A stretch of DNA of 19,763 bases from an uncultured delta proteobacterium. Lineage in GTDB: Bacteria; Myxococcota_A; Polyangia; Polyangiales; JADJMO01. Below the pieces are notes generated by a model. It saw only the letters and a list, made by a program, of their open reading frames with translations, ran no database searches and was not told the origin of the DNA. Positions 4,527 through 19,667 of this stretch are shown in pieces; position 1 is the first letter of the stretch, and every line of letters starts with the position of its first letter. The DNA is taken from contig CAIXWQ010000706.1 of NCBI GenBank assembly GCA_903923175.1, positions 1 to 19,763 on the forward strand. Direction: 5' to 3'. A program made the translations under genes and the position numbers.

Positions 4527-5042
4527 TCACCGCGGCGGGGGAACGAGGACGTCGAGCTTCACGACCTCCCCGTTCGCCCGCTTCGCGCTCACCGTGACCG
4601 TCTTCCCGGTGAGCGCGGGATCGCTGTTCATGACGATGAGGCCACCCTTGCCGTTCGGCATGACGGTGAGCGCCGGGTTGGTCACTTCGTAGCCCACGTA
4701 GTCGGGCGCGCTCGAGGACGCGGGCGCGCCCGTCGTTGCGACCGGAGCCACGGCAGCCCCCGCGGAGCCCGTCGACACCGCCGCCGGCGCGCGCAGGCGC
4801 AGCTCGGCAACCTCGGCGCGCAACGGCGCGATCTCGCGGCGGAGGTCGTCCTGCGCGCGCACGAGCTCCGCGCGCTCCGAGGCCCACGACGCGCTGCCTG
4901 GGGGCGCATTCGGGCGGAGCGCCGCGTAGATCGACACGATCAGCGCGAGGGCGGACACGACGAGCGGGGCGAAGCGAGCGCGATCGGTGGGAGCGGCCAA
5001 GGGCCCACCATACCGCACGCCGCCGAGTCGCCGAAAAGGCAC
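4527..5042 (-). CDS. Hypothetical single-pass membrane protein with a coiled-coil segment and a small C-terminal beta-domain
   Basis: The start is GTG at 5040-5042, or GTG at 5016-5018; neither has a clear SD. A TM helix (FAPLVVSALALIVSIYAAL) is followed by a coiled coil (ERAELVRAQDDLRREIAPLRAEVAELRL), an Ala/Ser/Thr linker, and a conserved-looking C-terminal domain (YVGYEVTNPALTVMPNGKGGLIVMNSDPALTGKTVTVSAKR). The opposite-strand alternative here is an Arg/Pro-rich low-complexity frame, which favours this ORF. Confidence 0.45.
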   Translation of the reverse strand: MPFRRLGGVRYGGPLAAPTDRARFAPLVVSALALIVSIYAALRPNAPPGSASWASERAELVRAQDDLRREIAPLRAEVAELRLRAPAAVSTGSAGAAVAPVATTGAPASSSAPDYVGYEVTNPALTVMPNGKGGLIVMNSDPALTGKTVTVSAKRANGEVVKLDVLVPPPR

Positions 5043-5101
5043 GTCGCGAGGGCGCCGCGCCGCGCTTGACCGCGCCGAGCGGGGCCGGCGACGCTGCGTG
5101 C

Positions 5102-7318
5102 GTGGCGCAAGGCGGGCCTCTCGCGCGAACGCTGGCGCTCTCGGCCGCGGTCGCCGTCTCGTGCGCCTCGTGCGCCTTCGGCTGTACCGCCGCGAGTCCT
5201 CCCGCCGCGCCCAGCTGCGCGGTCGACGAGCCCCTCGCCGCCGATGGCAGCTGCATTGCGCCGGGCGTCCCGCCTTCGCTGTGCGGCGACGGGTTCACGT
5301 CCGACGGCGCCGGCGGGTGCGCGCCGGTGCTCCTCGCCGAGCCGTGCGCCGCGGGGACGATGGCGGTCCCCGGCGAAGGCGCGTGCCACGCCGTCGGCGC
5401 GGTCGAGCCGCCCACGTGCCCGCGCGGAGCGCTCGCGAGCGTGGGCGAGTCGGCCTGTCACGAGGTCGCGCCGTGCGGCGCGGCGCCGTGGGGCACCATC
5501 CCGGTCGACGCCACCACGGTCTACGTCGACGCCGCCTACGGGGCGACCGACGGTGACGGCAGCGCGGCCAAGCCGTTTCGCACGATCGCCGAGGGGCTCG
5601 CGCGAGCGCCGTCGGGCGGCATCCTCGCCATCGCGGCCGGGCGGTACGTCGAGAGCGTCGCCCTTCAGGCGAAGCCGGTGAAGCTCTGGGGGCGCTGCCC
5701 GTCGATGGTCTCCGTCGAGGCGTCCGGCGCCGCGCCTGCGCTGGTGGTGCGCGGCGCGGCCTCGGCGGGCGCGGAGGCCCACCAGCTCGCGTTCAGCGGC
5801 CCTGGGCGCGGCGTCGCGGTCTCCCAGACCAGCGGCGTCGTGCTCGACCGCGTCTGGATCCACGACACCGGATCCGAGGGGCTCACCACCGGCGGCGAGG
5901 TGCTGCTCCGCGCGTCGCTCGTCGAGCGGACCGTCGGCGCGGGCGTGCACGTATCGGGCTCCGCGGTGACGATCGACGAAAGCGTCCTGCGTGACGTCCA
6001 GCCGGACGCGGCCGACGACTACGGTCACGGCGCGCTCGTCGACCAGGCCGGCTCGCTCGTCGTGACGGCGTCCGTGATCGAGCGCGACGTCGACGCCCTC
6101 GTCTCGGCGGAGGCGAGCGACGTGCTGGTGGACGGGAGCGTGCTGCGCGACGGGCTCGCGCACGCGGACGGCCGGCTCGGCGACGGGATCTCCGCCGTAT
6201 CGCTCGGCGGGCGCGCGTCGCACGTCACGCTGCGCGGCTCGACGCTCGCGCGCACGCGCCACGCCGGGATCTTCGCGATCGCGAGCGAGGTCGCCGTCGA
6301 GGGCTCGTTCGTGCACTCCACCCGGGGGACCGCGGACCAGCAGACCTACGGCGCGGGGCTCTTCGTCGTCGACGATCCGATCGCCGGCACACCCTCGCTG
6401 GCGAAGGTGAAGGGCTCGCTCGTGTCGGACAACCACTACGCCGGCATCGCCTGCGTCGGCAGCGTGCTCGACGTCGAGGGCTCGGTGGTGCGCGACGACC
6501 TCGCGCAGGAAATCGACGGAAGCTACGGCGTCGGGATCTACGCGCAGCAGGACGACGGCGTCTCGCCGCCCGCGCGCCCCGACGTGACCGTGCGCGGCTC
6601 GCTGCTCGAGCGCAACCAGGTGGCCGAGCTCGTGCTGCTGGCCGGCGACGGCGTCGTCGAGGCGTCGGTGCTGCGCGACACGCTCGCCGAGCAGCAGGGC
6701 GGGCTCGGCGAGGGGATCCTCGTCGGCGCCCAGGGAGCCCCCTCGACCCTCGCCGTTCGCGCGTGCGTGCTCAGCGGCAACCGCGCGGCGGCGATCGACG
6801 CCTACGCGGCCACGCTCGAGGTGACGGCGACCGTCGTGCGCGCGACGCTGCCGCGCGCCTCCGATCGGCTCTACGGCTACGGCATCTACGCGCAGGCCTC
6901 GCAGCTCACGCTCGGGGCGTCGCTCCTCGACGCGAACCACGCCGCGGGCGTGTTCCTGGACGGCGGCAGCGCGACCCTCGAGTCGACGGCGATCCGCGGC
7001 ACGCTCGGCAGCGACGTCGACGGCACGTTCGGCGACGGCCTCGCCGCGACCGGCGGCGCGACGGCGACCATCCGCCGCTCGCGCGTCGAGCGAAACGCGC
7101 GCGCCGGCATCTCGGCCTTCTCGTCGACGGTGACCCTCGACGGCGATGGCCTCGCCTGCAACGCCTTCGCGCTCGACGGCGAGGCGATCGGCGGCGCGCC
7201 CTACGCCTTCGAAGTCGCCTCTCCGTGCAGCTGCGCGTGCGGGAGCGAGGCCGCTCCGTGCCAGGTCTTGAGCAGCATGCTCACGCCCCCCACGCCGCTC
7301 CCGCCGCGGACGCACTGA
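5102..7318 (+). CDS. Large secreted right-handed parallel beta-helix repeat protein (pectate-lyase-like fold, DUF1565-type N-cap) with an N-terminal Cys-rich repeat region
   Basis: The most likely start is GTG at 5102. It gives the signal peptide M-AQGGPLARTLALSAAVAVSCASCAFGC. An in-frame TTG at 5066 is also possible. The region 5156-5495 has 13 Cys in evenly spaced C-x(9-12)-C modules (…SCAVDEPLAADGSCIAPGVPPSLCGDGFTSDGAGGCAPVLLAEPCAAG…). The beta-helix cap is DGDGSAAKPFRTIAEGLARAPSGGILAIAAGRYVE. More than 10 coils with a recurring GS(V/L)(L/V)RDxLA motif follow, and the C-terminus contains CSCACGSEAAPC. The long antisense ORF here is low-complexity. Confidence 0.8.
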   Translation: MAQGGPLARTLALSAAVAVSCASCAFGCTAASPPAAPSCAVDEPLAADGSCIAPGVPPSLCGDGFTSDGAGGCAPVLLAEPCAAGTMAVPGEGACHAVGAVEPPTCPRGALASVGESACHEVAPCGAAPWGTIPVDATTVYVDAAYGATDGDGSAAKPFRTIAEGLARAPSGGILAIAAGRYVESVALQAKPVKLWGRCPSMVSVEASGAAPALVVRGAASAGAEAHQLAFSGPGRGVAVSQTSGVVLDRVWIHDTGSEGLTTGGEVLLRASLVERTVGAGVHVSGSAVTIDESVLRDVQPDAADDYGHGALVDQAGSLVVTASVIERDVDALVSAEASDVLVDGSVLRDGLAHADGRLGDGISAVSLGGRASHVTLRGSTLARTRHAGIFAIASEVAVEGSFVHSTRGTADQQTYGAGLFVVDDPIAGTPSLAKVKGSLVSDNHYAGIACVGSVLDVEGSVVRDDLAQEIDGSYGVGIYAQQDDGVSPPARPDVTVRGSLLERNQVAELVLLAGDGVVEASVLRDTLAEQQGGLGEGILVGAQGAPSTLAVRACVLSGNRAAAIDAYAATLEVTATVVRATLPRASDRLYGYGIYAQASQLTLGASLLDANHAAGVFLDGGSATLESTAIRGTLGSDVDGTFGDGLAATGGATATIRRSRVERNARAGISAFSSTVTLDGDGLACNAFALDGEAIGGAPYAFEVASPCSCACGSEAAPCQVLSSMLTPPTPLPPRTH

Positions 7319-7490: not shown

Positions 7491-8042
7491 ATGGCGCGCA
7501 CCGCTTGGACGCTCGAGAACCGCACGCAGCTCCCCGCTCGCATCGCCACCATCCTCGTGCCGGTCGACTTCTCGGCCGCGTCGAGGGCGGCGATGGACCA
7601 CGCCGTCGAGCTCGCGCGCGCCCACGAGGCGGCCATCGACGTCGTGCACGTCTGGGACGTCCCCTCGTACTCCGGCGCCGCGCTCGTGTTCGAGGCGAAC
7701 GAGGGGGGGCGCACCTCCGCGAGCCCCACGTTCGCGCAGTACATGCACGACCGCGCGACCTCGGAGCTCGAGGCGTTCCTCGCGTCGTGGGGCGAAGCGG
7801 GGCTCGACATCCGCGGGCGCGTGCTCGACGGCGAGCCGGCGCGCGTCCTGGTCGCGCTCATCCGCGACGAGCACTTCGACCTCTGCGTGATCGGCGAGCG
7901 CGACAAGGGGGCCCGCGAGATCATCCTCGGCAGCGTCGCCGACGCGGTGCTGCGCGAGGCGGACTGCCCCGTCGTCACCGTTCGCGCCGTGCCGGAGCCC
8001 CGCGCGCCCGAAGAGTCGGCCGAAGGGCCGCGCGCGCGCTGA
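7491..8042 (+). CDS. Universal stress protein (UspA family)
   Basis: ATG at 7491. It has the classic Usp Rossmann-like signature: ILVPVDFSAASRAAMDHAVELARAHEAAIDVVHV near the N-terminus and GSVADAVLREADCPVVTV at the C-terminus. The ORF is 183 aa. Confidence 0.85.
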   Translation: MARTAWTLENRTQLPARIATILVPVDFSAASRAAMDHAVELARAHEAAIDVVHVWDVPSYSGAALVFEANEGGRTSASPTFAQYMHDRATSELEAFLASWGEAGLDIRGRVLDGEPARVLVALIRDEHFDLCVIGERDKGAREIILGSVADAVLREADCPVVTVRAVPEPRAPEESAEGPRAR

Positions 8043-9966: not shown

Positions 9967-10095
9967 TCCGCGAGCCCGGACGCACGCGCGGAGGTCGCAC
10001 GGCGCGGCGCGCGATGCGGAGAGCGCGCGGGGGCGAGTCGAGCGGCGTGCGTGAAGGGGCGTCGATGCGTCGTCGTTCCGGAGCGTGCCTGCGGT

Positions 10096-10111
10096 CGCGC
10101 GCATGCGCGCG
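10096..10111 (+). promoter_or_regulatory. 16-nt perfect alternating-CG palindrome abutting the ribosome-binding site of the PAS-LuxR gene
   Basis: CGCGCGCATGCGCGCG (10096-10111) is perfectly self-complementary. It ends 1 nt before the GGAGGAGG SD (10113-10121) of the gene that starts at 10127. It could be an operator or an RNA hairpin. Confidence 0.3.
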
Positions 10112-10126
10112 CGGAGGAGGAGCCCG

Positions 10127-11227
10127 ATGAGTACGCATTCCACGGAGCTCACGTCGGGGCCGAGCTACGGGCGTGGGTCAGGCGACGCGGAGCCCCCGTC
10201 CGACGCAGGGGTCGGTCGCTCGGATCTGACCGAGCGTACAGCTCGTCGGCAGGAGGGGCGCACGGTACTGAAGCCGTTGCGAGAGGCGCGCGATGCACGT
10301 GACGCAGCGGGGGAGAAGGTCGCTCCGGACACCGTGAAAGCCGACTGGATGACGCTGGCGAGCCGCGCGATCGAGATGCTGGCGAAGCCCGCCGTCGTCG
10401 TCGACCGGAAGGGGGCCATTCTCCTCTTCAACCACGAGATGCAGCGCTTGCTCGGGCGCACCCGCGACGAGTCGCTCGACCAGCCGTGGTTCGACCTCTT
10501 CGTGCCGAAGGACGCCCAGGACGCGGCCAAGCACTGCTTCGAGCAGGCGCTGCGCGGCGCGCTGGCCGAGTGCGAGTGCAAGGCGGTCACCAAGAGCGGC
10601 GTCCGCCTCCGTCTGCGCCTCGACGTCTCTGCGATCGGCACCGGGCCGCAGGCCGCGCTGTTCCTCGCGGTGCGAGAGAGCGAGCGCGAGGAGACCGACG
10701 CCGACGCGCCGGTCGAGGGGACGCACTACGCGATCTCGACCGCACCGCACGAGTGGGGTGCGCTGCGGAGCCTGCGCACGCCCGAGGGCCCCGTCGCCGC
10801 GGCGCGCGGTCGCCCCTGCTACGAGTGGCTCGAGCAGCGCTCCGGGCCGTGCCCAGGCTGCCCCGTGCAGGCGCTCCGCGAAGGCGAGTCCGCCAGCATC
10901 GTGCTGCCGAGCCGCGAGGCGGAGCTCCCGCTCCGGCTCGTCTCTGCGCGCGCGGTCAAGGGCGCGGGCGCCGCCGTCGTCCGACGCGAGCTCGAGCCGA
11001 AGCTCATCGCCCAGATCGTCGAGGCGAAGCTGCTCGTGGTCGCGCGCGAGAAGCACCTCTCGCCGCGCGAACGCGACGTGCTGCGCTCGCTGCTGCGCGG
11101 CGACTCCTCGCAGGACATCGCGACGGCGCTCGGCATCTCGCCGCGCACGGTGAAGTTCCATCAGGCGAACCTGCTCCGGAAGCTCGGCGCCGACTCGCGG
11201 CTCGAGCTGGTTCGCTGGCTGCTGTAG
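10127..11227 (+). CDS. PAS-domain / LuxR-type (GerE) HTH transcriptional regulator (one-component; no receiver domain)
   Basis: ATG at 10127 follows GGAGGAGG (10113-10121). The PAS-like core is ASRAIEMLAKPAVVVDRKGAILLFNHEMQRLLGRTRDESLDQPWFDLFVP. The C-terminal LuxR HTH is REKHLSPRERDVLRSLLRGDSSQDIATALGISPRTVKFHQANLLRKLGADSRLELVRWLL. There is no Asp-containing REC domain. Confidence 0.85.
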   Translation: MSTHSTELTSGPSYGRGSGDAEPPSDAGVGRSDLTERTARRQEGRTVLKPLREARDARDAAGEKVAPDTVKADWMTLASRAIEMLAKPAVVVDRKGAILLFNHEMQRLLGRTRDESLDQPWFDLFVPKDAQDAAKHCFEQALRGALAECECKAVTKSGVRLRLRLDVSAIGTGPQAALFLAVRESEREETDADAPVEGTHYAISTAPHEWGALRSLRTPEGPVAAARGRPCYEWLEQRSGPCPGCPVQALREGESASIVLPSREAELPLRLVSARAVKGAGAAVVRRELEPKLIAQIVEAKLLVVAREKHLSPRERDVLRSLLRGDSSQDIATALGISPRTVKFHQANLLRKLGADSRLELVRWLL

Positions 11228-11276
11228 CGTCGCGCGTGCGCCGCGCCGCGTGCTCCGTCCTCGCGTGGCCGCGTCA

Positions 11277-11295
11277 CCCCGCCGCGCCGGCGGGG
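11277..11295. terminator. Putative bidirectional terminator hairpin between convergent genes
   Basis: ccccgccg-cgc-cggcgggg forms a perfect 8-bp G/C stem with a 3-nt loop. It lies 50 nt after the LuxR-family gene stop and 4 nt after the histidine-kinase stop. There is no U-tract. Confidence 0.35.
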
Positions 11296-11299
11296 GCGT

Positions 11300-12535
11300 T
11301 CACGGGCGCTTCGCGCTCGGAAACCACAGCGTGAAGCGGGCGCCGTGCCCGGGCGACGTCTCGAGGCTCAGCCGGCCGCTCGAGCGCTGCACGAAGGCGT
11401 AGACCATCGCGAGGCCGAGCCCGGTGCCCTCTTCGCCCTTCGTCGTGAAGAAGGGCTCGAACACGCGCGCCTCGACGTCCGCCGGCATCCCCGGGCCGTC
11501 ATCGCTCACGTGAAGGCACGCGCCGCCCTCGACGGCGCCGGTCGTCACCTCGATCGTCCCGCCCTTCACGCCGAGGGCGTCGATGGCGTTGACGATCAGG
11601 TTCACGAGCGCGGCGACCCCGTCGCTCGCCCGCAGTCGCACGAGCGGCGGATCGCCGCGGCGCGCCACGACCGTCACGTGCGTGTCGTGCTTCATCCGCA
11701 GGCGCGGCTTGCAGATCTCGATCGCCTCCGCCGCGAGCTGGTCGAGGTCGACCAGATCCTGGTTGCCCGCGGGGGCCTGCCGGCTGAACGCGCGCAGGCG
11801 CTCGATGGTCTCGAGCCCGCGCCGCAACACGAGCTGCATGTCCGCGATCGACTGCTGGGCGTCGACCTCCTCCTTGGAGATCGCCCGCTTGAGGAACTGC
11901 AGGTGCAGCGAGAGCGGGTTCAGGATGTTCTTGAGGTCGTGCGAGATGCCCGCCGCCATCTCGCCGAGCGCCCGTAGCTTCTGCGTGCGCTCGAGCAGGT
12001 CGCGCGAGGCGCGGAGCTCGCGTCGCGAGCGGGTCAGCTCCGCCTCGAGCGCGGCTTGTGCCAGCGCAGTTCCACCGAGGTCCGCGAGCCCTTCGAGCAG
12101 CGCGTGGGCCTCCTCGTCGAGCTCCTGGTCGGCGCCGAGGATCACGATCAGCGTGCCGAAGAGATCGCCCCCCGAGACGAGCGGGAACGTTCGAGCCTGC
12201 GTGTCGGCGGTGCCGAGCGCGGCGATCACGCGCTCTTCGAGCTCGGGGTCGAAGGCGTCGACGTCGCCGAGCCGCGCTGCGAAGTCGGCGGGGAGCCCGT
12301 TCGAAGCGGCAAGCGCGACCCCACCGGTGGGCGTGACGGCGACGACGGCGGCGCCGCGTGCGTCGACGTGCGCCATCGCAGCTTCCGTGACGAGCGGCAG
12401 AATCCGCTCATTCGCGCCGCCGGTCGTCACTGCTCGGCTAAGCCGGACCAACGTCGCGACCGCGCCTCTGTCCGGATGACTCGAAGGAGGCGTCACTGAT
12501 CGCGCAGCATTCGCAAAGGGCGGGCTTGCGGTCAA
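11300..12535 (-). CDS. Cytoplasmic sensor histidine kinase (GAF - HisKA - HATPase_c)
   Basis: The first in-frame start is TTG at 12533-12535, preceded by an AAAGG-like SD. A GTG at 12493-12495 is an alternative. The N-terminal region is GAF-like. The H-box is EMAAGISHDLKNILNPL. The N/G boxes are LVNLIVNAIDA, VSDDGPGM and FEPFFTTKGEEGTGLGLAMV. There are no TM segments. Confidence 0.85.
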   Translation of the reverse strand: MTASPPFANAARSVTPPSSHPDRGAVATLVRLSRAVTTGGANERILPLVTEAAMAHVDARGAAVVAVTPTGGVALAASNGLPADFAARLGDVDAFDPELEERVIAALGTADTQARTFPLVSGGDLFGTLIVILGADQELDEEAHALLEGLADLGGTALAQAALEAELTRSRRELRASRDLLERTQKLRALGEMAAGISHDLKNILNPLSLHLQFLKRAISKEEVDAQQSIADMQLVLRRGLETIERLRAFSRQAPAGNQDLVDLDQLAAEAIEICKPRLRMKHDTHVTVVARRGDPPLVRLRASDGVAALVNLIVNAIDALGVKGGTIEVTTGAVEGGACLHVSDDGPGMPADVEARVFEPFFTTKGEEGTGLGLAMVYAFVQRSSGRLSLETSPGHGARFTLWFPSAKRP

Positions 12536-12590
12536 CCCCTGCCTTTACCCCCTATGCGTTCCTCGTTCCCGAGCGCCTGCGGGCGGGCTA

Positions 12591-13526
12591 ATGTCCGTGT
12601 CGATGGATGCGCGAGCAACGATGGCACGGCTCGGCTTCGACGAGCGCGAGCTCCAGAGTCGACGGGCGATCTTCGAGCTGCACGACGAGGACCTGCAGCG
12701 CCTCACCGCGATCCGCGCGATCGCGGAGCGCCACATGGCCGAAGTCGTGGACGGCTTCTACGCGCTCTTGCTCGGACACCCGGGCACGCGCCGCTTCCTG
12801 ACCGACGACGCCCAGGTCGCGCGGTTGAAGCGGACCCAGAGCGCGTACTTCCTGCAGCTCTTCGACGGCCGCTGCGATCTCCCCTACGTCGAGAACCGCA
12901 TCCGCGTCGGCGCGGTCCACGAGCGCATCGGGCTCGCGCCGAAGTGGTACATCGCGGCCTACCGGCGCTACCTCGCGCTGCTGCTCGAGCGCGTCGTCTT
13001 GGACATCCCCGATCGCGCCGAGGCGCTGGCGGCCTACCAGAGCCTCAAGAAGATCGTCGCCTTCGACATGTCGATCGCGATCGACACCTACATCGCGGCG
13101 AACCTCGAGTCGCTCGGGCGTCACCAGGCCGCGATCCGCGAGCTCTCGACCCCCGTCATCCGCGTGCACGAACGGCTCCTGCTGCTGCCGCTCGTCGGCG
13201 CCATCGACAGCCAGCGGGCGCAGCAGGTCATGGAGATGGTGCTGGTGCGCGTCATCGAGGAGAAGGCGCGCGCGATCATCATCGACATCGCCGGCGTGCC
13301 CGTCGTCGACACCAAGGTCGCCGATCACCTGCTCAAGACCACCGCCGCCGTGAAGTTGATCGGAGCGCAGACGATCTTGACCGGCATCAGCGCGCAAGTC
13401 GCGCGCACCATCGTGCAACTTGGCGTCGACATCTCCTCGATGCACACGCTCGCGCGCCTCTCCGAGGGCATCGAGCTGGGGCTCGAGCTCGTTGGCAAGA
13501 GAATCGCTCCGAAGGAGCCCTCGTGA
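12591..13526 (+). CDS. rsbR: RsbR-like stressosome sensor protein (N-terminal non-haem globin-type sensor domain + C-terminal STAS domain)
   Basis: ATG at 12591. The N-terminal 165 aa resemble the RsbR non-haem globin domain (RLTAIRAIAERHMAEVVDGFYALLLGHPGTRRFLTDDAQVARLKRTQSAYFLQLF…WYIAAYRRYLALL). The C-terminal STAS domain is PVIRVHERLLLLPLVGAIDSQRAQQVMEMVLVRVIEEKARAIIIDIAGVPVVDTKVADHLLKTTAAVKLIGAQTILTGISAQVARTIVQLGVD. The gene order with the next two genes is the canonical rsbR-rsbS-rsbT order. Confidence 0.85.
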   Translation: MSVSMDARATMARLGFDERELQSRRAIFELHDEDLQRLTAIRAIAERHMAEVVDGFYALLLGHPGTRRFLTDDAQVARLKRTQSAYFLQLFDGRCDLPYVENRIRVGAVHERIGLAPKWYIAAYRRYLALLLERVVLDIPDRAEALAAYQSLKKIVAFDMSIAIDTYIAANLESLGRHQAAIRELSTPVIRVHERLLLLPLVGAIDSQRAQQVMEMVLVRVIEEKARAIIIDIAGVPVVDTKVADHLLKTTAAVKLIGAQTILTGISAQVARTIVQLGVDISSMHTLARLSEGIELGLELVGKRIAPKEPS

Positions 13527-13891
13527 GCCGCAAGGGCCCGATCCCCATCCTGCGCGTCGGCAACGTGTTGCTGACGACCATCCACATCGACCTGCAGGAC
13601 ACGATCGCGGCCGCGTTCCAGGAGGACGTCCTCACCGAGATCGAGAAGACCGGCGCGCACGGCATCGTGGTCGACATCAGCGGCCTCGACGAGGTCGACA
13701 CCCACGTCGCGCGCATCCTCGCCGAGACGGGGGCGATGGCGCGGCTCATGGGCACCCGCGCGGTGCTCGTGGGGATGCGCCCCGAGGTCGCCGCGACGCT
13801 CGTGCGCATGGGCTACGCGATGGGCGCGATCGAGACGGCGCTGGACGTCGACGACGGCCTTCGCCTCCTCGGTGGAAGGCCGAAGGGCTGA
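13523..13891 (+). CDS. rsbS: RsbS-like single-STAS-domain stressosome scaffold protein
   Basis: GTG at 13523 overlaps the rsbR TGA in a GTGA overlap and follows AAGGAG (13512-13517). The 122-aa STAS protein is VSRKGPIPILRVGNVLLTTIHIDLQDTIAAAFQEDVLTEIEKTGAHGIVVDISGLDEVDTHVARILAETGAMARLMGTRAVLVGMRPEVAATLVRMGYAM… It corresponds to the C-terminal part of the longer ORF-track entry 12554..13891, whose N-terminal part is out-of-frame junk. Confidence 0.8.
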   Translation: MSRKGPIPILRVGNVLLTTIHIDLQDTIAAAFQEDVLTEIEKTGAHGIVVDISGLDEVDTHVARILAETGAMARLMGTRAVLVGMRPEVAATLVRMGYAMGAIETALDVDDGLRLLGGRPKG

Positions 13892-13898
13892 AGTGACC

Positions 13899-14330
13899 AT
13901 GGGCTCGCTGGCGTTCGAATCCCAGACGCTGTCGTCCGAGACGATGGCGATCGATCGCGAGGAGGACATCGTCCACGTGCGCAAGCGCGCGCGGATGCTG
14001 GCCCAGGCGCGCGGGTTCGACGCCTTCGCGTGCGCCGCGCTCACCACCGCGGCCTCGGAGCTCGCGCGCAACGTGTGGGTGCACGGCGGCGGCGGCCAGG
14101 CGACGCTCGAGGAGCTCTCCGACGGCAACCGCTTCGGCATCCGGATGGTCTTCCGCGATCAGGGCCCGGGGATCGCCGACCTCGAGCGCGCACTTCAGGG
14201 GGGCTACTCCACCGCGCGCTCGCTCGGCCTCGGGCTCTCCGGCACGCGGCGGCTCGTGGAGGACTTCGCCATCGACACGCGACCCGGTGAAGGGACGCGC
14301 GTCACGATCACCAAATGGACTCGTTTCTGA
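13899..14330 (+). CDS. rsbT: RsbT-like serine/threonine protein kinase (GHKL/anti-sigma-factor-kinase fold), the stressosome switch kinase
   Basis: ATG at 13899 follows GAAGGG (13882-13887). A GTG at 13893 is an alternative. The N-box is ASELARNVWVHG. The G-boxes are DQGPGI and SLGLGLSG. The size (about 143 aa) and its position after rsbS match RsbT. Confidence 0.85.
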   Translation: MGSLAFESQTLSSETMAIDREEDIVHVRKRARMLAQARGFDAFACAALTTAASELARNVWVHGGGGQATLEELSDGNRFGIRMVFRDQGPGIADLERALQGGYSTARSLGLGLSGTRRLVEDFAIDTRPGEGTRVTITKWTRF

Positions 14331-15343
14331 TCGAGCGGTGGGTCTCCCACCTCGATCGGCTGACGATCTACGACGAGGCCTCGGTCTCGGAAGCGCGGCA
14401 GCGCGCCCGGGCGGCGGCCGCCGCCGCGGGGATGTCCGCCGACGCGGCGGCGACGCTCGCGCTGATCGCGAGCGAGCTCGCCCACAACCAGCTACGCCAC
14501 GCGCGCGGCGGGCAGATCGCCGCGAGCGTCTTCGCCCGCGGCGACCGGCTCGGGGTCGAGATCGTCGCCGCCGATCGCGGCGGAGGGATCGCGGATCCGT
14601 CGGCGGCGATCGAGCACGGCGCCTCGACGGGCGGCGGCCTCGGCGCGGGGCTCGCGGGGGTGCTGAGGCTGGCCGACGAGGTCGATTTCGACATCCGCCT
14701 CGGCCAGGGGACTTGCGTCTGGGCCCGCAAGATCGAGGGCGCGAGCCACCGACGCGAGGTCGCCGTGCTCGGCCGCCCCGCCGACGGCGAGCGCGTCAGC
14801 GGCGACGACGCCTGCTTCGTGCGCGACGACGACACGCTCGTGCTCGCGCTCGCCGACGGCCTCGGGCACGGCCCCGACGCGAGCCTGGCGGCCCGCGCCG
14901 CGGTGGAGACGGTGCGCAACGCCCCCGCTCGCGCGCTCCCCGATCTGCTGCGCGAGGCAGGCGCCGCGCTCGTGCGGACGCGCGGCGCCGCGATGTCGAT
15001 CGTGCGCATCGACGAGCGGTTCGCCGAGCTGCGCCACGCGGGCGTCGGCAACGTCACGGCGCACGTGGTCTCCGCCGACTCGCAGCGCGCCTTCAGCGGC
15101 ATCTCGGCGGTGCTCGGCATGGAGCCGGCGCGCGCGCCGCTGCGTCGCGCTCGCACCGACGAGGATCACGCCCCCTTCGGCCCGTGGGACGTCGCGTTCC
15201 TGTTCACCGACGGCTTGACGACGCGCACGCGCCTGGAATCCGAGAGCGGCGCGCTGCGTCGCCATCCCGTCCTGATCGCCGACGCGCTGCTGAAGGCGTT
15301 CGGGCGCACGCACGACGACGCGACGGTCATCGTCGTCTCGTGA
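14315..15343 (+). CDS. Fusion protein: RsbT-paralogous GHKL Ser-kinase domain (residues about 1-150) + PP2C/SpoIIE-type (RsbX-like) phosphatase domain (about 152-342)
   Basis: ATG at 14315 lies 16 nt inside the rsbT 3' end. The N-terminal domain aligns motif-for-motif with the preceding RsbT (IYDEASVSEARQRARAAAAAAG… ASELAHNQLRHARGGQ, DRGGGIAD, STGGGLGAGLAG). The C-terminal PP2C motifs are LALADGLGHGPDAS, FLFTDGLT and HDDATVIVVS. Confidence 0.85.
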   Translation: MDSFLIERWVSHLDRLTIYDEASVSEARQRARAAAAAAGMSADAAATLALIASELAHNQLRHARGGQIAASVFARGDRLGVEIVAADRGGGIADPSAAIEHGASTGGGLGAGLAGVLRLADEVDFDIRLGQGTCVWARKIEGASHRREVAVLGRPADGERVSGDDACFVRDDDTLVLALADGLGHGPDASLAARAAVETVRNAPARALPDLLREAGAALVRTRGAAMSIVRIDERFAELRHAGVGNVTAHVVSADSQRAFSGISAVLGMEPARAPLRRARTDEDHAPFGPWDVAFLFTDGLTTRTRLESESGALRRHPVLIADALLKAFGRTHDDATVIVVS

Positions 15344-15571
15344 GCCTCGAACGCGGCCCTTCACGCGGTCGAAGCGCCGGAGCTCCCCGACGCGCCGCAA
15401 CGCCGATCCGACGCACCTGACGCGTCCGTACGCACCGGCTGCAGCTTCGCGTGCGCCCCTCACGCGCATCACGCTCCCTGCGCAGCGCGGCCGCCGCGCG
15501 ACGCGTGGCGCGCGCGTTGCTCCGTCCTCGGGGTGCGACCGCGCGGCTGCGGCCGAGCCGGAGGTGGACCG

Positions 15572-16516
15572 ATGTGGACAGGCCCGACCGAGCGCTGGCG
15601 CGCGATGCTCCAGAGGGAAGAGGAGCCCCGCGCCCTCACCATCGCCATGCAGGCCGTCCGTGACGCCGAGCACGGACCGCACAAGGACCCCGAGCGCCTC
15701 GCGGAGGCGCGCCTCGCGCTCGCCGAGTGCTTCCTCGGCGAGAGCCGCTACCAGGACGCGTTGACCGAGCTCGAGCACGCGCGCAAGGCGCTGCACGCCG
15801 CGCCCGTCGCCACCGTGCGAAGGCTCGCAGAGCTCGACGACCTCGAGGGGATCGCCCACGAGGCGCTGGGCAAGCCGTTCGAGGCCGAGACGCACTTCCT
15901 CGCGGCGCTGAAGGCGCGCGAGGCGGAGTGCGGTCGCGAGGACCCGGAGGTCGCGACCTCGCTCGAGAACCTCGCGCGGCTCTACGCCGACGGCACCTTC
16001 GAGGAGCGCCACGCCATCCCGCTCCTCGGCCGCGCGCTGCGCATCCTCGAGAAGGCGGGGCCGAGCTGCGATCACCGGCGCGTGCGCGTGCTGCACGATC
16101 TCGCCGTGCTGCAGCGCAACGCGGAGCACCTCGACGAGGCGCGCGATCTCCTCGAGGACGCGCTGCGCGTCCAGATCGATCTCGCCGGCCGCAACGACGC
16201 GTCGGTCGCGCCGCTGCTGCGCGATCTCGCGCTGATCTACGCCGAGAAGAAGGAGTGGATCACCGTCGAGGCGCTGCTGCGTCGAGCGCTCGTGATCATG
16301 GACACCCACCCCGCGCAGGAGGCCCTGCCGTACATCGAGGACCTCGCCGACGCCGAGCGCGAGATGGGCAAGGTCGACGAGGCGCTGGTGCTCTACCGGC
16401 ACGCCGCGCGGCTGTATCGCGCGGTGGGCGGCCAGGACGACATCGAGGCGGCCGAGATCGAGCAATTCGTCGACGACCTCGAGGAGCTGCGTCGCGCGCA
16501 CAAGACCGAGAGCTGA
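15572..16516 (+). CDS. Soluble TPR-repeat protein (TPR_12/kinesin-light-chain-like repeats)
   Basis: ATG at 15572 follows GGAGGTGG (15560-15567). The protein is 314 aa of repeated about 42-aa helical units (…ATSLENLARLYADGTFEERHAIPLLGRALRILEK…VAPLLRDLALIYAEKKEWITVEALLRRALVIM…). The 5' part of the ORF-track entry from 15533 lacks an RBS. Confidence 0.8.
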   Translation: MWTGPTERWRAMLQREEEPRALTIAMQAVRDAEHGPHKDPERLAEARLALAECFLGESRYQDALTELEHARKALHAAPVATVRRLAELDDLEGIAHEALGKPFEAETHFLAALKAREAECGREDPEVATSLENLARLYADGTFEERHAIPLLGRALRILEKAGPSCDHRRVRVLHDLAVLQRNAEHLDEARDLLEDALRVQIDLAGRNDASVAPLLRDLALIYAEKKEWITVEALLRRALVIMDTHPAQEALPYIEDLADAEREMGKVDEALVLYRHAARLYRAVGGQDDIEAAEIEQFVDDLEELRRAHKTES

Positions 16517-16550: not shown

Positions 16551-17516
16551 TCAGGGCGCCCGCAGCGGGCAGTGGCCGTCGAAGCAGAGATCGGAGCCGC
16601 TGCCCGGGTAGTAGTAGCCGATCACGAAGCACATCTCGTCGAGCGCGCTCTCACCGAACCCGATGCCGTTCGGCGTGTCGTTGAGGTAGTCGCACTGGTA
16701 GGTGAGCCCCGAGGTGCCGTCGAAGGTGAACTGCGGATCGACGGAGACGTAGCGAGGCTCCGCCCAGTTGGTGTCGTCGGCCAGCCGCGCGCCGGGCTGG
16801 CCGCGCGCCGCCGACGCCCACACCTGCGCCTCGGTGCCGTGCGAGTGCTGGTGCGTCGTGACGTAGAACATCTTCGTGCCGGGCTTGCCTGCCTGGAAAT
16901 GCTGGCCGGTGCTCCACGACTGGTTGGCGGGAATGTCGATCTGTCGCGTCCCCCAGAACAGCACGTCGGCCGCCTGGTAGCCGGTCGCCTGCGCCAGCGG
17001 GATCCCCTCGACCTTGAACGTCCCCGCGCCCTGCAGCGCCGTCTTGCCGGCGTTGATGTAGTGCGCCTCGATCTTGATCACCTGATCGGCCGCGAGGACC
17101 ACCCCGACGCCGGCGGGGAAGTCGAGCTCCGCCTTCTCCTTGCCGATGAGCGCGATCGGGGCCTCGTCGGTGCCGTTGATGAACGTATTCACGAACGGCG
17201 CGCACGGCGTCGGCGTCAGGTCCTCGTCGGTCGCCGTCGTGCGATAGACGATCATGTGATGCGAGCCGGGCGCGAGGTCGGCCGAGAGCTTGGTCGCGAG
17301 CAGCGGCTGGCCGGTGCCGATCTTCACGCGGATGCAGACCGTCTTCTCGTCGCCCGGCTGCAGGTCGATCGGGCCGATCGAGGCCTGCGCGGTCGTCGGC
17401 AGCGGGACGTCGGCCGCCGGCGCGCCGGACGACGAGCACGCGGGGAGCGCCGCGAGGCCCGAAAGGCAGAGCGACGCGAGCGCGGCGATCGAAGCGAGAC
17501 GCGAGGGCTTCGGCAT
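16551..17516 (-). CDS. Exported lipoprotein of unknown function; beta-rich, with His-cluster (HHMIVY, THQHSHGTE) and 8 Cys, possibly metal-binding
   Basis: Start is ATG at 17514-17516, giving the textbook lipoprotein signal MPKPSRLASIAALASLCLSGLAALPAC|SSS. The ORF-track 793-aa version (to 18932) adds an Arg/Glu/Asp/Pro-rich extension antisense to the nfeD/flotillin genes and is rejected. The mature protein has paired Cys (CIRVKIG…PC, CDYLND…C…C…C), which suggests disulfides. Confidence 0.75.
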   Translation of the reverse strand: MPKPSRLASIAALASLCLSGLAALPACSSSGAPAADVPLPTTAQASIGPIDLQPGDEKTVCIRVKIGTGQPLLATKLSADLAPGSHHMIVYRTTATDEDLTPTPCAPFVNTFINGTDEAPIALIGKEKAELDFPAGVGVVLAADQVIKIEAHYINAGKTALQGAGTFKVEGIPLAQATGYQAADVLFWGTRQIDIPANQSWSTGQHFQAGKPGTKMFYVTTHQHSHGTEAQVWASAARGQPGARLADDTNWAEPRYVSVDPQFTFDGTSGLTYQCDYLNDTPNGIGFGESALDEMCFVIGYYYPGSGSDLCFDGHCPLRAP

Positions 17517-17612
17517 GGGTACGGGCAGCTTAGCCGTATACCGGTCCGGGGCACCCTCGGGATCGCGTAAGGGGCGTTCGCCAGCGGTGCGCGCAGGTCG
17601 TACCCTCGTCGC

Positions 17613-18173
17613 GTGATCGCCGTCTACCTCGCGGCCTTGGTCGTCGCGCTCGGCGTCGTCGGGGTGCAGCTGCTCGGCGGGGCGCACGGTCACGACGGCT
17701 CGGTCGGCGCGCACGACGTCTCCGCCGGCGCGCACGGCGACCACGATGCCCTCTCGACCGCCTCGCTCTTCCTCTCGACGCGGTTCTGGACGTTCGCGCT
17801 GCTGGCGCTCGGGCTGGTCGGCACGCTCCTCTCGCTCCTGCGGCTCGCCTCGCCTTGGGCCATCGTCGTGCTGGCGATCACCAGCGGCGTCGTCTCGGGG
17901 CTCTTCGCCGCGCTCGTGTTCCGCGCGCTCCGGCGGTCCGACCGGTGGAGCGGGGCCTCGCTGAACGAGGCGATCGGCACCACCGCGCGCGTGCTCGTCC
18001 CCTGCGCCAAGGGGCGGGTCGGCAAGGTGCGCGCGCTCGTGAAGGGGGCGACCGTCGACATGCTCGCCATGACCGACGCCGAGGAGATCGAGATCGGCGC
18101 CCACGTGCTCATCGCGGCGATCGACGGGGGCATCGCGAAGGTCGAGCGCGCGCCGCTGGAGCTCGAGCCGTAG
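17613..18173 (+). CDS. nfeD: NfeD-like (short form, YuaF-type) membrane protein with a C-terminal OB-fold and an unusual His-rich loop
   Basis: Start is GTG at 17613, the first start in frame, with no obvious SD. There are two or three TM helices (IAVYLAALVVALGVVGVQLL; FWTFALLALGLVGTLLSLL; WAIVVLAITSGVVSGLFAALVF). The C-terminal beta-barrel motif is GTTARVLVPCAKGRVGKVRALVKGATVDMLAMTDAEEIEIGAHVLIAAIDGGIAKVE. The His-rich insert is GAHGHDGSVGAHDVSAGAHGDHD. The gene lies immediately upstream of a flotillin gene, the canonical NfeD-SPFH pairing. Confidence 0.75.
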   Translation: MIAVYLAALVVALGVVGVQLLGGAHGHDGSVGAHDVSAGAHGDHDALSTASLFLSTRFWTFALLALGLVGTLLSLLRLASPWAIVVLAITSGVVSGLFAALVFRALRRSDRWSGASLNEAIGTTARVLVPCAKGRVGKVRALVKGATVDMLAMTDAEEIEIGAHVLIAAIDGGIAKVERAPLELEP

Positions 18174-18374
18174 CGGCGGCGCGTGCGCTCGCGCGGGGCG
18201 CGCGCACCGCCGCTCGGTCGCCATGCCCGGTGGCGGTAGCGCAGGGTGCAACGCTTGCGTCGCCGAGCGCGTCGATCGGCCTCGTTTTCCAGGCCGTTCC
18301 GCGCGTCGCGCCGCGTGTATCCTCGCCGCATGGTCAAGCCCACGTCCGATGGGATCCCCGATCTCGGGATCGAC

Positions 18375-19667
18375 ATGCAGACGGCGACGCTCCTGCTCGG
18401 CGGCGCCGTCGCCGTCGTCATCGCGTTCGCGCTCTTCGTGTGGTTGATGAACCGGTTCCTCTACGTGTGCCGGCCGAACGAAATCCTGATCTTCGCGGGG
18501 CGAAAGCACCGATTGCCGGACGGCACCGAGGTCGGCTTCAAGATCCTGCACGGCGGTCGTGGCATCCGCACGCCGCTGCTGGAGACGGTCTCGCGCATGG
18601 ACATGCGCCTGTTCCCCGTCGAGGTCGCCGTCGCGAGCGCGTACTCGAAGGGGGGCATCCCGCTCACCGTCAACGCGATCGCGAACGTGAAGATCGCGAG
18701 CGACCCGCTGCTGGTGCGCAACGCGGTCGAGCGCTTCCTCGGCACCAGCATGCAGCAGATCGCGGTGGTCGCGCAGCAGACGCTCGAGGGCGTGCTGCGC
18801 GAGGTCCTCTCGCAGCTCACGCCGGAGGAGGTGAACCAGGATCGCCTCAAGTTCGCGGAGAGCCTCGTGCTGAACGCGAAGGACGACTTCGACAAGCTCG
18901 GCCTCGAGCTCGACGTGCTCAAGGTGCAGCACGTCGCCGACGATCAGCAGTACCTGCAGAACCTCGGGCGCGCCCGCATCGCCGGCATGATCCGCGACGC
19001 GCAGAACGCCGAGAACCAGGCCAACCAGCGCATCGCCGAGGAGCAGGCCGCCGCGCGGATGCGCGCCGAGTCGGCGCAGAAACAGGCCGAGGCGATGGTG
19101 CTGCAGAAGAAGAACGGCGTGCGCGCCGAGCTCGCCCGCCTCGAGGCGCAGGCCAAGTCGATCGAGAACGAGGCGGAGGTCGCCTCGCAGACGGCGCGCT
19201 CGTTCGCCGAGCAGGATCTCCAGGGGCGCCGCGCCGAGCTCGAGAAGCTCCGCCTCGAGTGCGACGTCGTGCTGCCCGCAGAGGCGCGGCGCATGGCCGA
19301 GGAGGCGAAGGCGCGCGGCGCGGCGGCGCCGACCGTCGAGCAGGGCAAGGCGGCGGCGGAGGCGCTCACGATGGTCGCCGCCGAGTGGCAGGCGGCCGGC
19401 AAGGACGGGCGCGACCTCTACGTGCTCAACCAGCTCCGGAGCTTCGTCGAGTCGGCCATCACCCGCGTCGGACAGACCGAGATCAAGGAGCTGCAGCTGG
19501 TCGACGGCGGCGACGGCAAGGCGCTCGCCTCGCTGTTCGCGGCCTTCCCAAACGCGGTCGCCCGCGTGATGGAGGCGACCGGCGACGCGATCGGCGTCGA
19601 CATCGACGCGCTCATCGGATCCTCGCTCTCGAAGAGCGCCAAGAACGCCAAGAACGAGGTGCGGTGA
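18375..19667 (+). CDS. Flotillin-like SPFH/Band-7 domain protein (FloT/YuaG type) with C-terminal EA-rich coiled coil
   Basis: ATG at 18375 gives MQTATLLLGGAVAVVIAFALFVWLMNRFLYVCRPNEILIFAG, the typical flotillin N-terminal membrane hairpin followed by the PNE…G motif. The SPFH core is GIPLTVNAIANVKIASDPLLVRNAVERFLG. A long Ala/Glu/Gln-rich coiled coil follows (AEEQAAARMRAESAQKQAEAMVLQKK…). Upstream Met/GTG codons in the ORF-track version (from 18246) add an Arg-rich tail with no RBS. Confidence 0.85.
   Translation: MQTATLLLGGAVAVVIAFALFVWLMNRFLYVCRPNEILIFAGRKHRLPDGTEVGFKILHGGRGIRTPLLETVSRMDMRLFPVEVAVASAYSKGGIPLTVNAIANVKIASDPLLVRNAVERFLGTSMQQIAVVAQQTLEGVLREVLSQLTPEEVNQDRLKFAESLVLNAKDDFDKLGLELDVLKVQHVADDQQYLQNLGRARIAGMIRDAQNAENQANQRIAEEQAAARMRAESAQKQAEAMVLQKKNGVRAELARLEAQAKSIENEAEVASQTARSFAEQDLQGRRAELEKLRLECDVVLPAEARRMAEEAKARGAAAPTVEQGKAAAEALTMVAAEWQAAGKDGRDLYVLNQLRSFVESAITRVGQTEIKELQLVDGGDGKALASLFAAFPNAVARVMEATGDAIGVDIDALIGSSLSKSAKNAKNEVR

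Follow-up and report, generated by a model that had tools for sequence, protein, structure and literature searches.

A predicted haem-globin stressosome in a Polyangia-type myxobacterium travels with a divergent GAF-like histidine kinase

Which signalling pathway does a stressosome serve when no sigma factor is encoded beside it? The question is raised by a contig of an uncultured delta proteobacterium (CAIXWQ010000706.1, assembly GCA_903923175.1), which we analysed over its complete length of 19,763 bp and call the window (74% G+C); all negative results given for the locus hold for this contig. Third-position GC and Pfam matches yielded the gene order PAS-LuxR regulator (+), GAF-like histidine kinase (HK, -), globin-type rsbR, rsbS, rsbT, a gene for an RsbT-like/RsbX fusion protein, and a gene for a tetratricopeptide repeat (TPR) protein (+) (Table 1). 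The same layout, a stressosome flanked by a GAF-HK, a PAS-LuxR regulator and a TPR protein, had been described earlier from the letters alone (the original prediction), and the output was then sought either in the LuxR regulator, with the HK as an orphan partner, or in the TPR protein as an effector recruited by RsbT. We propose a different answer. The HK gene and the rsbR(globin)-rsbS-rsbT-fusion operon would form a five-gene unit for O2 sensing: RsbT would link the stressosome to the HK, and the fusion protein would reset it. We put the probability of this reading at roughly 55%; it is drawn from the identity of the module, from synteny in two directions, from the catalytic boxes of the HK and from the literature on related systems.

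To find the neighbour that travels with the module, we read the neighbourhoods of fusion orthologs at 89, 62, 53, 51, 48, and 44% identity and mapped the window proteins by tblastn onto a further 80 loci (L007-L086) from species-representative genomes. Twenty-four loci qualified, having a fusion ortholog of at least 40% identity, a globin-type RsbR and sufficient flanking sequence. They belong mostly to Polyangia and other Myxococcota metagenome-assembled genomes (MAGs), and one MAG is labelled Planctomycetota. In 19/24 loci the gene directly adjacent to the module encoded an HK whose catalytic core was ≥40% identical to that of the window HK. The same divergent GAF-HK was present at lower identity in 2/24 (L024 and L035), and an HK of the same GAF-like type thus adjoined the module in 21 of the 24 loci. 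Another 2/24 (L006 and L027) carried a co-directional hybrid of GAF, HK and receiver (REC) domains upstream of rsbR, which ends 3 bp before rsbR in L006 and has the same position in L027. The PAS-LuxR gene was found in 2/24 loci (L001 and L002), and so was the TPR gene (the same two loci).

Eighteen of the 19 adjacent HKs were divergent from rsbR, and one (L009) was convergent after the fusion gene. In the reverse direction, we started from three HK orthologs on long contigs that lay outside the fusion match list. All three adjoined globin-RsbR, RsbS, RsbT and the fusion; the HK was divergent in L168 and L169 and convergent after the fusion gene in L167. The linkage between HK and module therefore survives rearrangement (L009 and L167). 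Among the three flanking genes that the original prediction had singled out for a synteny comparison, the HK gene co-travels with the module in both directions and the LuxR and TPR genes do not. The divergent HK is the constant partner of the module, not LuxR or TPR. The original prediction was right in looking for an output other than sigma-B and in giving weight to the HK.

Pfam searches of the window gave no sigma-70 domain above the cut-off in any gene-like open reading frame (ORF), the sole sigma-related matches being sub-threshold Sigma70_r4 matches on the helix-turn-helix (HTH) of the LuxR regulator. They also gave no stand-alone RsbV-type STAS protein beyond RsbS among the window ORFs and no RsbU_N domain in the gene-like ORFs. 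The set of a sigma-B cascade (RsbU with RsbU_N, RsbV, RsbW and a sigma-70 factor) is thus absent from the locus. This agrees with the original prediction on sigma factor and RsbV. Its further statement, that there is no anti-sigma factor, holds functionally but not by fold, since the anti-sigma-kinase fold family (HATPase_c_2) includes both RsbT and the N-terminal half of the fusion; JGI labels homologs of these HATPase_c_2 proteins 'anti-sigma regulatory factor'.

By sequence, RsbR, RsbS, RsbT and an RsbX-type PP2C phosphatase are each present, and the module is on these grounds a predicted haem-globin RsbR-RsbS-RsbT-RsbX (RSTX) stressosome. RsbR matched Protoglobin (1.4e-40) and STAS (9e-16) in Pfam. 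Its best solved relative was the V. vulnificus stressosome RsbR (7o0i_B, E=9e-47, residues 26-305), and, as in the Vibrio type, the N-terminal domain is a sensor globin with a proximal His (VGAVHERIGL), which aligned to V. vulnificus RsbR. The globin domain also matched the structures of HemAT and of globin-coupled HKs. The Thr phospho-sites of RsbR (VVDT and ARTIV) align to vvdt and a(q/r)tiv of Vibrio/RsbR-type chains. No signalling output gene of the kind found in Vibrio stands directly downstream of the rsbX-type gene in the window. RsbS is a single STAS protein (E=4.5e-29 to B. subtilis RsbS 6jhk) with Thr at the position of B. subtilis Ser59 (DEVDTHVAR vs. DMIDSFIAK), and its start overlaps rsbR by 4 bp (13523-13526). 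RsbT has 143 aa from the ATG at 13899, its longest ORF beginning at GTG 13872 and its homologs having 138-143 aa. It matched HATPase_c_2 in Pfam (2.3e-9), the N, G1 and G2 motifs are visible in its sequence, and weak matches were seen to SpoIIAB structures and to NCBIfam SpoIIAB/RsbA models; the NCBIfam scan gave no equivalog-level names. In one related locus (L170:4330-4590, GCA_027325815.1) rsbR is an 86-aa globin remnant, with HK, RsbS, RsbT and fusion intact. This shortening could be a real deletion or an assembly artefact.

The fusion protein consists of an RsbT-like HATPase_c_2 domain (residues 1-145) and an RsbX-type PP2C domain (residues 146-342). Over 95 residues, its N-terminal half shares 42% identity with the RsbT of the operon (E=3e-12). 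The ATP-binding motifs N, G1 and G2 of this half are intact and invariant family-wide, and the metal-binding Asp residues of the PP2C half are also invariant; the invariant residues (alignment A1) are E54/N58/H62, D87xG89xG91, G110xG112, D164, D181-G186, D299 and D334/D335. The PP2C half matched 3zt9 (E=1.6e-12) and B. subtilis RsbX 3w40 (E=5e-9) by sequence, and the same two structures by fold in Foldseek (TMt 0.91 with a root-mean-square deviation of 2.3 Å to 3zt9; TMt 0.80 to 3w40). We take 3zt9 to be the Moorella protein MtX. The structural model of the fusion reached a predicted local distance difference test score (pLDDT) of 89 and a predicted template-modelling score (pTM) of 0.90. We infer that the RsbT-like half probably docks the fusion on the STAS core. 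The fusion gene overlaps rsbT by 16 bp (14315-14330), and the overlap is the same in all gene-called relatives; together with the rsbR/rsbS overlap, it suggests translational coupling and a fixed stoichiometry of the products. The fusion family comprised 1,768 cluster representatives at E≤1e-30, nearly all of ~340 aa, from Myxococcota, Acidobacteriota, Gemmatimonadota, Actinomycetota and Burkholderiales. The fusion gene directly followed rsbT in 86/86 loci, of which 85 had RsbS and 84 an RsbR-type STAS protein. In many phyla the reset phosphatase seems usually to occur as such an RsbT-like::RsbX fusion; no description of the family was found in the searchable literature.

The HK belongs to a family of cytoplasmic proteins of ~390-400 aa with invariant H, N, G1, F and G2 boxes (alignment A2) and with the motif PLVSGGxLFG in the N-terminal domain. 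Like other two-component kinases it has a HisKA phospho-acceptor (His199 in ORF numbering) and a complete HATPase_c domain; Pfam added a weak GAF_2 match (E=1e-3, below cut-off). The AlphaFold2 model (pLDDT 79) contains a compact alpha/beta domain at residues 25-135 (HHEEHHEE) followed by a long DHp helix. Foldseek returned the DHp-CA cores of ZraS and CckA and full-length LOV-HK chimeras; this whole-kinase comparison was governed by the DHp-CA core and left the N-terminal domain unclassified. The GAF assignment was made from the weak Pfam match, from a Pfam GAF domain in ~15 of the 120 homologs listed and from the secondary-structure pattern. The NCBIfam models nearest to the catalytic core were of the AtoS, ZraS, NtrB and PrsK types, none of them reaching the cut-off. 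Kinases of these types partner NtrC-family regulators. In the window no receiver gene stands beside the HK: Pfam found no receiver domain, and tblastn with seven receiver seeds from related loci gave nothing credible, in agreement with the earlier observation that the HK has no cognate response regulator there. The longest HK ORF starts at TTG 12535, but the homologs begin where the window has its GTG codon 14 (12496), and the model shows disorder over residues 1-22. The gap between HK and rsbR is therefore more likely 94 bp, 55 bp being the minimum. The shared divergent control region of the original prediction is thus present, and its length of 55 bp applies only to the TTG start. A metagenome scan from the HK alignment, based on the generic motifs FEPFFTT and HDLKNILN, returned unrelated kinases at ~30% identity (L087-L166), which were discarded.

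HKs are also linked to this type of module outside the myxobacteria. We scanned the co-directional gene that starts at the fusion stop codon in 35 loci of Acidobacteriota, Gemmatimonadota, Burkholderiales and Actinomycetota. HisKA was found in 22/35 of these genes, an additional N-terminal HATPase_c_2 (RsbT-like) domain in 20/35, a receiver in 10/35, RsbU_N in 2/35 and an NtrC-type domain in 2/35. A linked HK is the commonest partner of this module type across phyla. In these phyla the gene after the fusion thus usually encodes an HK with a further N-terminal RsbT-like domain, often together with a receiver, as exemplified by L034:11373-13070 (alignment A3). RsbT-like domains may be adaptors through which different enzymes dock on the STAS core.

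The response regulator of the myxobacterial HK is unlinked or variable. In 11 of 31 globin-type loci (including L004, L005, L167 and L169), a gene for an NtrC-family sigma-54 activator is found no more than ~10 kb away from the unit, and in 7 of those 11, with the reference L004 itself counted, the AAA+ domain of the activator is at least 70% identical to that of L004. Usp and CBS genes also recur near the unit. The combination of NtrC activator, a separate Protoglobin-PAS-HK and Usp/CBS genes resembles a gene island for the response to hypoxia, and the window has a Usp gene of its own (7491-8042). The HK gene of Pendulispora brunnea (CP089982.1, locus L005) is followed by a REC-GGDEF gene.

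How the five-gene unit might work can be outlined from what was directly observed: the domains of its proteins, the intactness of their catalytic and phospho-acceptor residues, and the conserved linkage of the genes. By analogy with Vibrio and Bacillus, O2, or possibly nitric oxide (NO) or carbon monoxide (CO), would bind the haem of the RsbR globin. The change in ligation would alter RsbT kinase activity on the Thr residues of RsbR and RsbS, and RsbT would leave the STAS core, as in the Vibrio and Bacillus systems. Free RsbT would then most likely bind or phosphorylate the GAF-like domain of the HK and so change autophosphorylation at the H box. From there the phosphate would pass to a response regulator encoded elsewhere; the candidates are NtrC-family sigma-54 activators or REC-GGDEF proteins, the nearest that recur in relatives. 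The fusion would finally dephosphorylate RsbR and RsbS and reset the complex, again by analogy with Vibrio and Bacillus. It was reported previously that the haem-RsbR stressosome of V. brasiliensis binds haem and that O2 binding lowers its RsbT kinase activity (Jia 2016, PMC4976288), and RsbT-dependent phosphorylation of a sensor kinase has been proposed (Heinz 2022, PMC9237108).

Several points weigh against this scheme. Haem binding by RsbR is predicted from the aligned globin residues, and haem binding and ligand-dependent RsbT activity have been demonstrated only for V. brasiliensis and V. vulnificus (PMC4976288, PMC9237108). The step from RsbT to the HK is one that we infer. Pfam found no RsbU_N in the HK, and no other module is proven to bind RsbT; in Vibrio an interaction of RsbT with the neighbouring kinase VvD1 was not detectable (Heinz 2022, PMC9237108). 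Divergent transcription equally fits an HK that acts upstream of the operon or parallel to it. One of the 24 loci (1/24, L023) has no adjacent HK. No gene linked to the HK in the window encodes a cognate regulator. Among the 31 globin-type loci, the receiver genes found in the vicinity of the unit vary in type and follow no consistent pattern, and the NtrC-type activator, where annotated, is often beside the separate Protoglobin-PAS-HK.

The alternative that survives best takes the HK as a conserved neighbour upstream of or parallel to the stressosome, with the target of RsbT elsewhere in the genome. The HK could, for example, act through an unlinked regulator on transcription from the shared divergent promoter region, or it could sense a separate signal with its GAF domain. 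The divergent arrangement favours this explanation, with a 31-bp intergenic block (12530-12560, GGTCAACCCCTGCCTTTACCCCCTATGCGTT) that the window has in common with L001, L002 and L170, whereas the intergenic sequence on either side of it is divergent (alignment A5). By its conservation the block is a candidate shared operator or promoter; a promoter and terminator scan gave no sigma-70-like promoter or consensus and terminator-like sites at chance level, and inspection of the block by eye gave no convincing sigma-54 -24/-12 element. The lack of RsbU_N in the HK and the undetectable RsbT-VvD1 interaction in Vibrio fit this explanation too, and the GAF-like domain could bind a ligand of its own. 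However, HK and module stay adjacent in the convergent loci L009 and L167, where the shared promoter is gone, and across phyla no direct neighbour of this module type is commoner than an HK. We consider an independent HK unlikely and retain the coupling of RsbT to the HK as the preferred reading.

A second alternative is that the fusion itself is the output, its kinase-like domain sequestering or phosphorylating an unlinked sigma factor or STAS protein in a hidden form of partner switching. Its N-terminal half has the anti-sigma-kinase fold with invariant N, G1 and G2 motifs, and distal partners are possible beyond a single 19.8-kb contig. Against this, tblastn with the window STAS domains found only the RsbR and RsbS of the module in related loci. 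No sigma factor was seen in 11 fully annotated stressosome neighbourhoods or in the 35 downstream genes (a systematic sigma search was not made). Moreover, the C-terminal half is an RsbX-type feedback phosphatase by sequence and fold, and the closest resemblance of the N-terminal half is to the RsbT of the operon, in keeping with docking on RsbR and RsbS. This explanation is in our view quite improbable.

A stressosome that acts through the PAS-LuxR protein, with the HK as orphan partner of this regulator, is very improbable. The regulator was correctly described as convergent with the HK and devoid of a receiver domain (Pfam and the gene map agree). Its start is probably M15 at 10127. Only its GerE HTH region matched FixJ/NarL in NCBIfam, PAS filling the N-terminal part, and neither Pfam nor NCBIfam gave the receiver of a NarL/FixJ response regulator. 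The protein is a one-component regulator and, having no receiver, cannot accept phosphate from the HK. It accompanies the module and converges with the HK in one clade only (the window, L001, L002 and L170, the last found separately from the 24-locus set, at 63% identity) and is absent from 22 of the 24 loci. In this clade AAA_28, a small ORF, NfeD and Band_7 are collinear throughout; L001 and L002 share AAA_28, YwiC, Usp, NfeD and Band_7 with the window, and L170 keeps LuxR, HK, the module (with the rsbR remnant), NfeD and Band_7 and has neither the TPR nor the lipoprotein gene. Since the whole neighbourhood is collinear, the co-occurrence of LuxR with the module carries no functional weight. 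Two more distant members of its family (36 and 31% identity) are encoded nowhere near stressosome genes. The PAS-LuxR family also has an invariant C-x10-C-x2-C motif ('PCPGCP') between PAS and HTH (ORF residues ~245-260, window 10340-11227, alignment A4). The three Cys residues suggest a metal, Fe-S or redox-sensing site, and motif and PAS domain together fit a self-contained one-component sensor.

The TPR protein as an RsbT-recruited effector is hardly plausible: although its gene is the next one after the operon on the same strand, and TPR is a protein-protein interaction fold, the gene follows after a gap of ~190 bp, occurs in two of the 24 loci, is split or degenerate in L002, being separated there from the operon by a called gene of the opposite strand, and is absent in L170 and all more distant relatives examined. 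Both PAS-LuxR and TPR are clade-specific neighbours, not part of the conserved unit and not outputs.

The two outputs first considered had been regarded as non-canonical, and in this the novelty was overstated. Stressosomes without sigB are already documented, haem-globin ones with two-component or c-di-GMP outputs among them (Pane-Farre 2005, as cited in Heinz 2022; Jia 2016, PMC4976288; Heinz 2022, PMC9237108). The eight-gene sigB operon is restricted to Bacillales, whereas a four-gene rsbRSTX without sigB is widely conserved, and RSTX modules with two-component, GGDEF or PP2C partners are the common form outside Bacillales (Heinz 2022, PMC9237108). Eleven downstream architectures were described for globin-coupled RSTX, including PP2C, cyclic di-GMP (c-di-GMP) enzymes and HisKA/REC phosphorelays, and most of the downstream proteins are without RsbU_N (PMC9237108). 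Stressosomes that have a two-component neighbour and no sigma factor form an already known class, of which this locus is an example. Distinct here are the divergent upstream kinase, its GAF-like sensor, the two-domain RsbX and the myxobacterial host.

The closest known system is that of Vibrio vulnificus and V. brasiliensis (rsbRSTX with VvD1/VvD2), which shares an operon of haem globin RsbR, RsbS, RsbT and an RsbX-type phosphatase, has no sigB, rsbU, rsbV or rsbW, and is likewise associated with a two-component kinase instead of a sigma factor. The kinase is directly downstream of rsbX in Vibrio, whereas here it is divergent upstream of rsbR, lacks a receiver and has a GAF-like sensor; a second linked signalling gene corresponding to VvD2 is missing. 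RsbX is a single-domain PP2C in the work of Heinz et al. and has an N-terminal RsbT-like domain here, and the host here is a Polyangia-type myxobacterium; no publication on stressosomes and myxobacteria together was found in the searchable literature. The sigma-B systems of Bacillus subtilis and Listeria (rsbRSTUVW-sigB-rsbX) have in common with the window the STAS phospho-acceptor positions, RsbT and an RsbX-type phosphatase. They differ in RsbU (RsbU_N), RsbV, RsbW and the sigma factor, which the window does not have, in their non-haem globin RsbR (here a haem-type globin with a proximal His) and in the position of RsbX, which here directly follows RsbT and is fused to a kinase-like domain. 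Moorella thermoacetica MtR-MtS-MtT-MtX-MtG (Quin 2012, as described in citing papers) also has a non-sigma output, and the PP2C half of the fusion is structurally closest to 3zt9 (see above). According to those citing papers, the Moorella output is a diguanylate cyclase reportedly phosphorylated by MtT, in contrast to the linked HK here, and MtX is a single domain, in contrast to the two-domain fusion. M. tuberculosis Rv1364c (PDB 3ke6, a Foldseek match) combines PP2C and a HATPase_c_2 kinase-like domain in one polypeptide, as the fusion does, but in the reversed order, PP2C then kinase. Rv1364c also has PAS and STAS domains and is not known to belong to an RsbR/S/T operon.

The signalling target of RsbT in stressosomes without sigma-B is the question to which the locus speaks, the Vibrio work having been unable to show an interaction of RsbT with its neighbouring two-component protein. 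The myxobacterial unit provides a clean pair of candidates, a single RsbT and a single small soluble GAF-HK, whose linkage survives rearrangement, which makes the question directly testable in vitro. A broader picture is possible and is put forward tentatively: the haem stressosome of Polyangia-type myxobacteria would be an O2 input device for the GAF-HK, with RsbT or the RsbT-like half of the fusion as the coupler; the HK and the neighbouring globin-coupled HK could share the NtrC activator in a two-sensor hypoxia circuit; and, to judge from the fusion and from the HKs of other phyla that have an N-terminal RsbT-like domain, RsbT-like domains might be general docking adaptors for attaching various enzymes to the STAS core.

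Table 1. Positions of the features of the window, with strand and basis of assignment
Feature	Position	Strand	Basis
Collagen triple-helix-repeat protein, 454 aa	3155-4519		
Right-handed beta-helix protein, 860 aa, after the collagen-repeat gene	4736-7318		
Usp gene	7491-8042		
PAS + GerE/LuxR HTH regulator	ORF 10085-11227, gene 10127-11227	+	Pfam
GAF-like histidine kinase, HisKA + HATPase_c	Longest ORF 11300-12535, likely gene 11300-12496	-	Pfam, alignment, model, synteny
Divergent HK/rsbR intergenic control region, ~94 bp	12497-12590	.	Four-relative alignment
RsbR, Protoglobin + STAS	12591-13526	+	Pfam
RsbS, STAS	13523-13891	+	Pfam, PDB match
RsbT, HATPase_c_2	13899-14330 (longest ORF from 13872)	+	Pfam
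RsbT-like/RsbX fusion, HATPase_c_2 + SpoIIE/PP2C	14315-15343	+	Pfam, sequence, fold
TPR protein, TPR_12/TPR_10	15533-16516	+	Pfam
Cu2_monoox_C (copper monooxygenase C-terminal) lipoprotein	16551-17520	-	
NfeD-like membrane protein	17613-18173	+	
SPFH/Band_7 protein	18246-19667	+	

The remaining genes of the window encode a metallo-beta-lactamase, a second TPR protein, YwiC and AAA_28, and an Rfam search of the window gave no match. Neither the collagen-repeat gene nor the beta-helix gene was found in the related loci. The Cu2_monoox_C lipoprotein gene is missing in L002 and L170, and the NfeD-SPFH pair is kept across the close clade.

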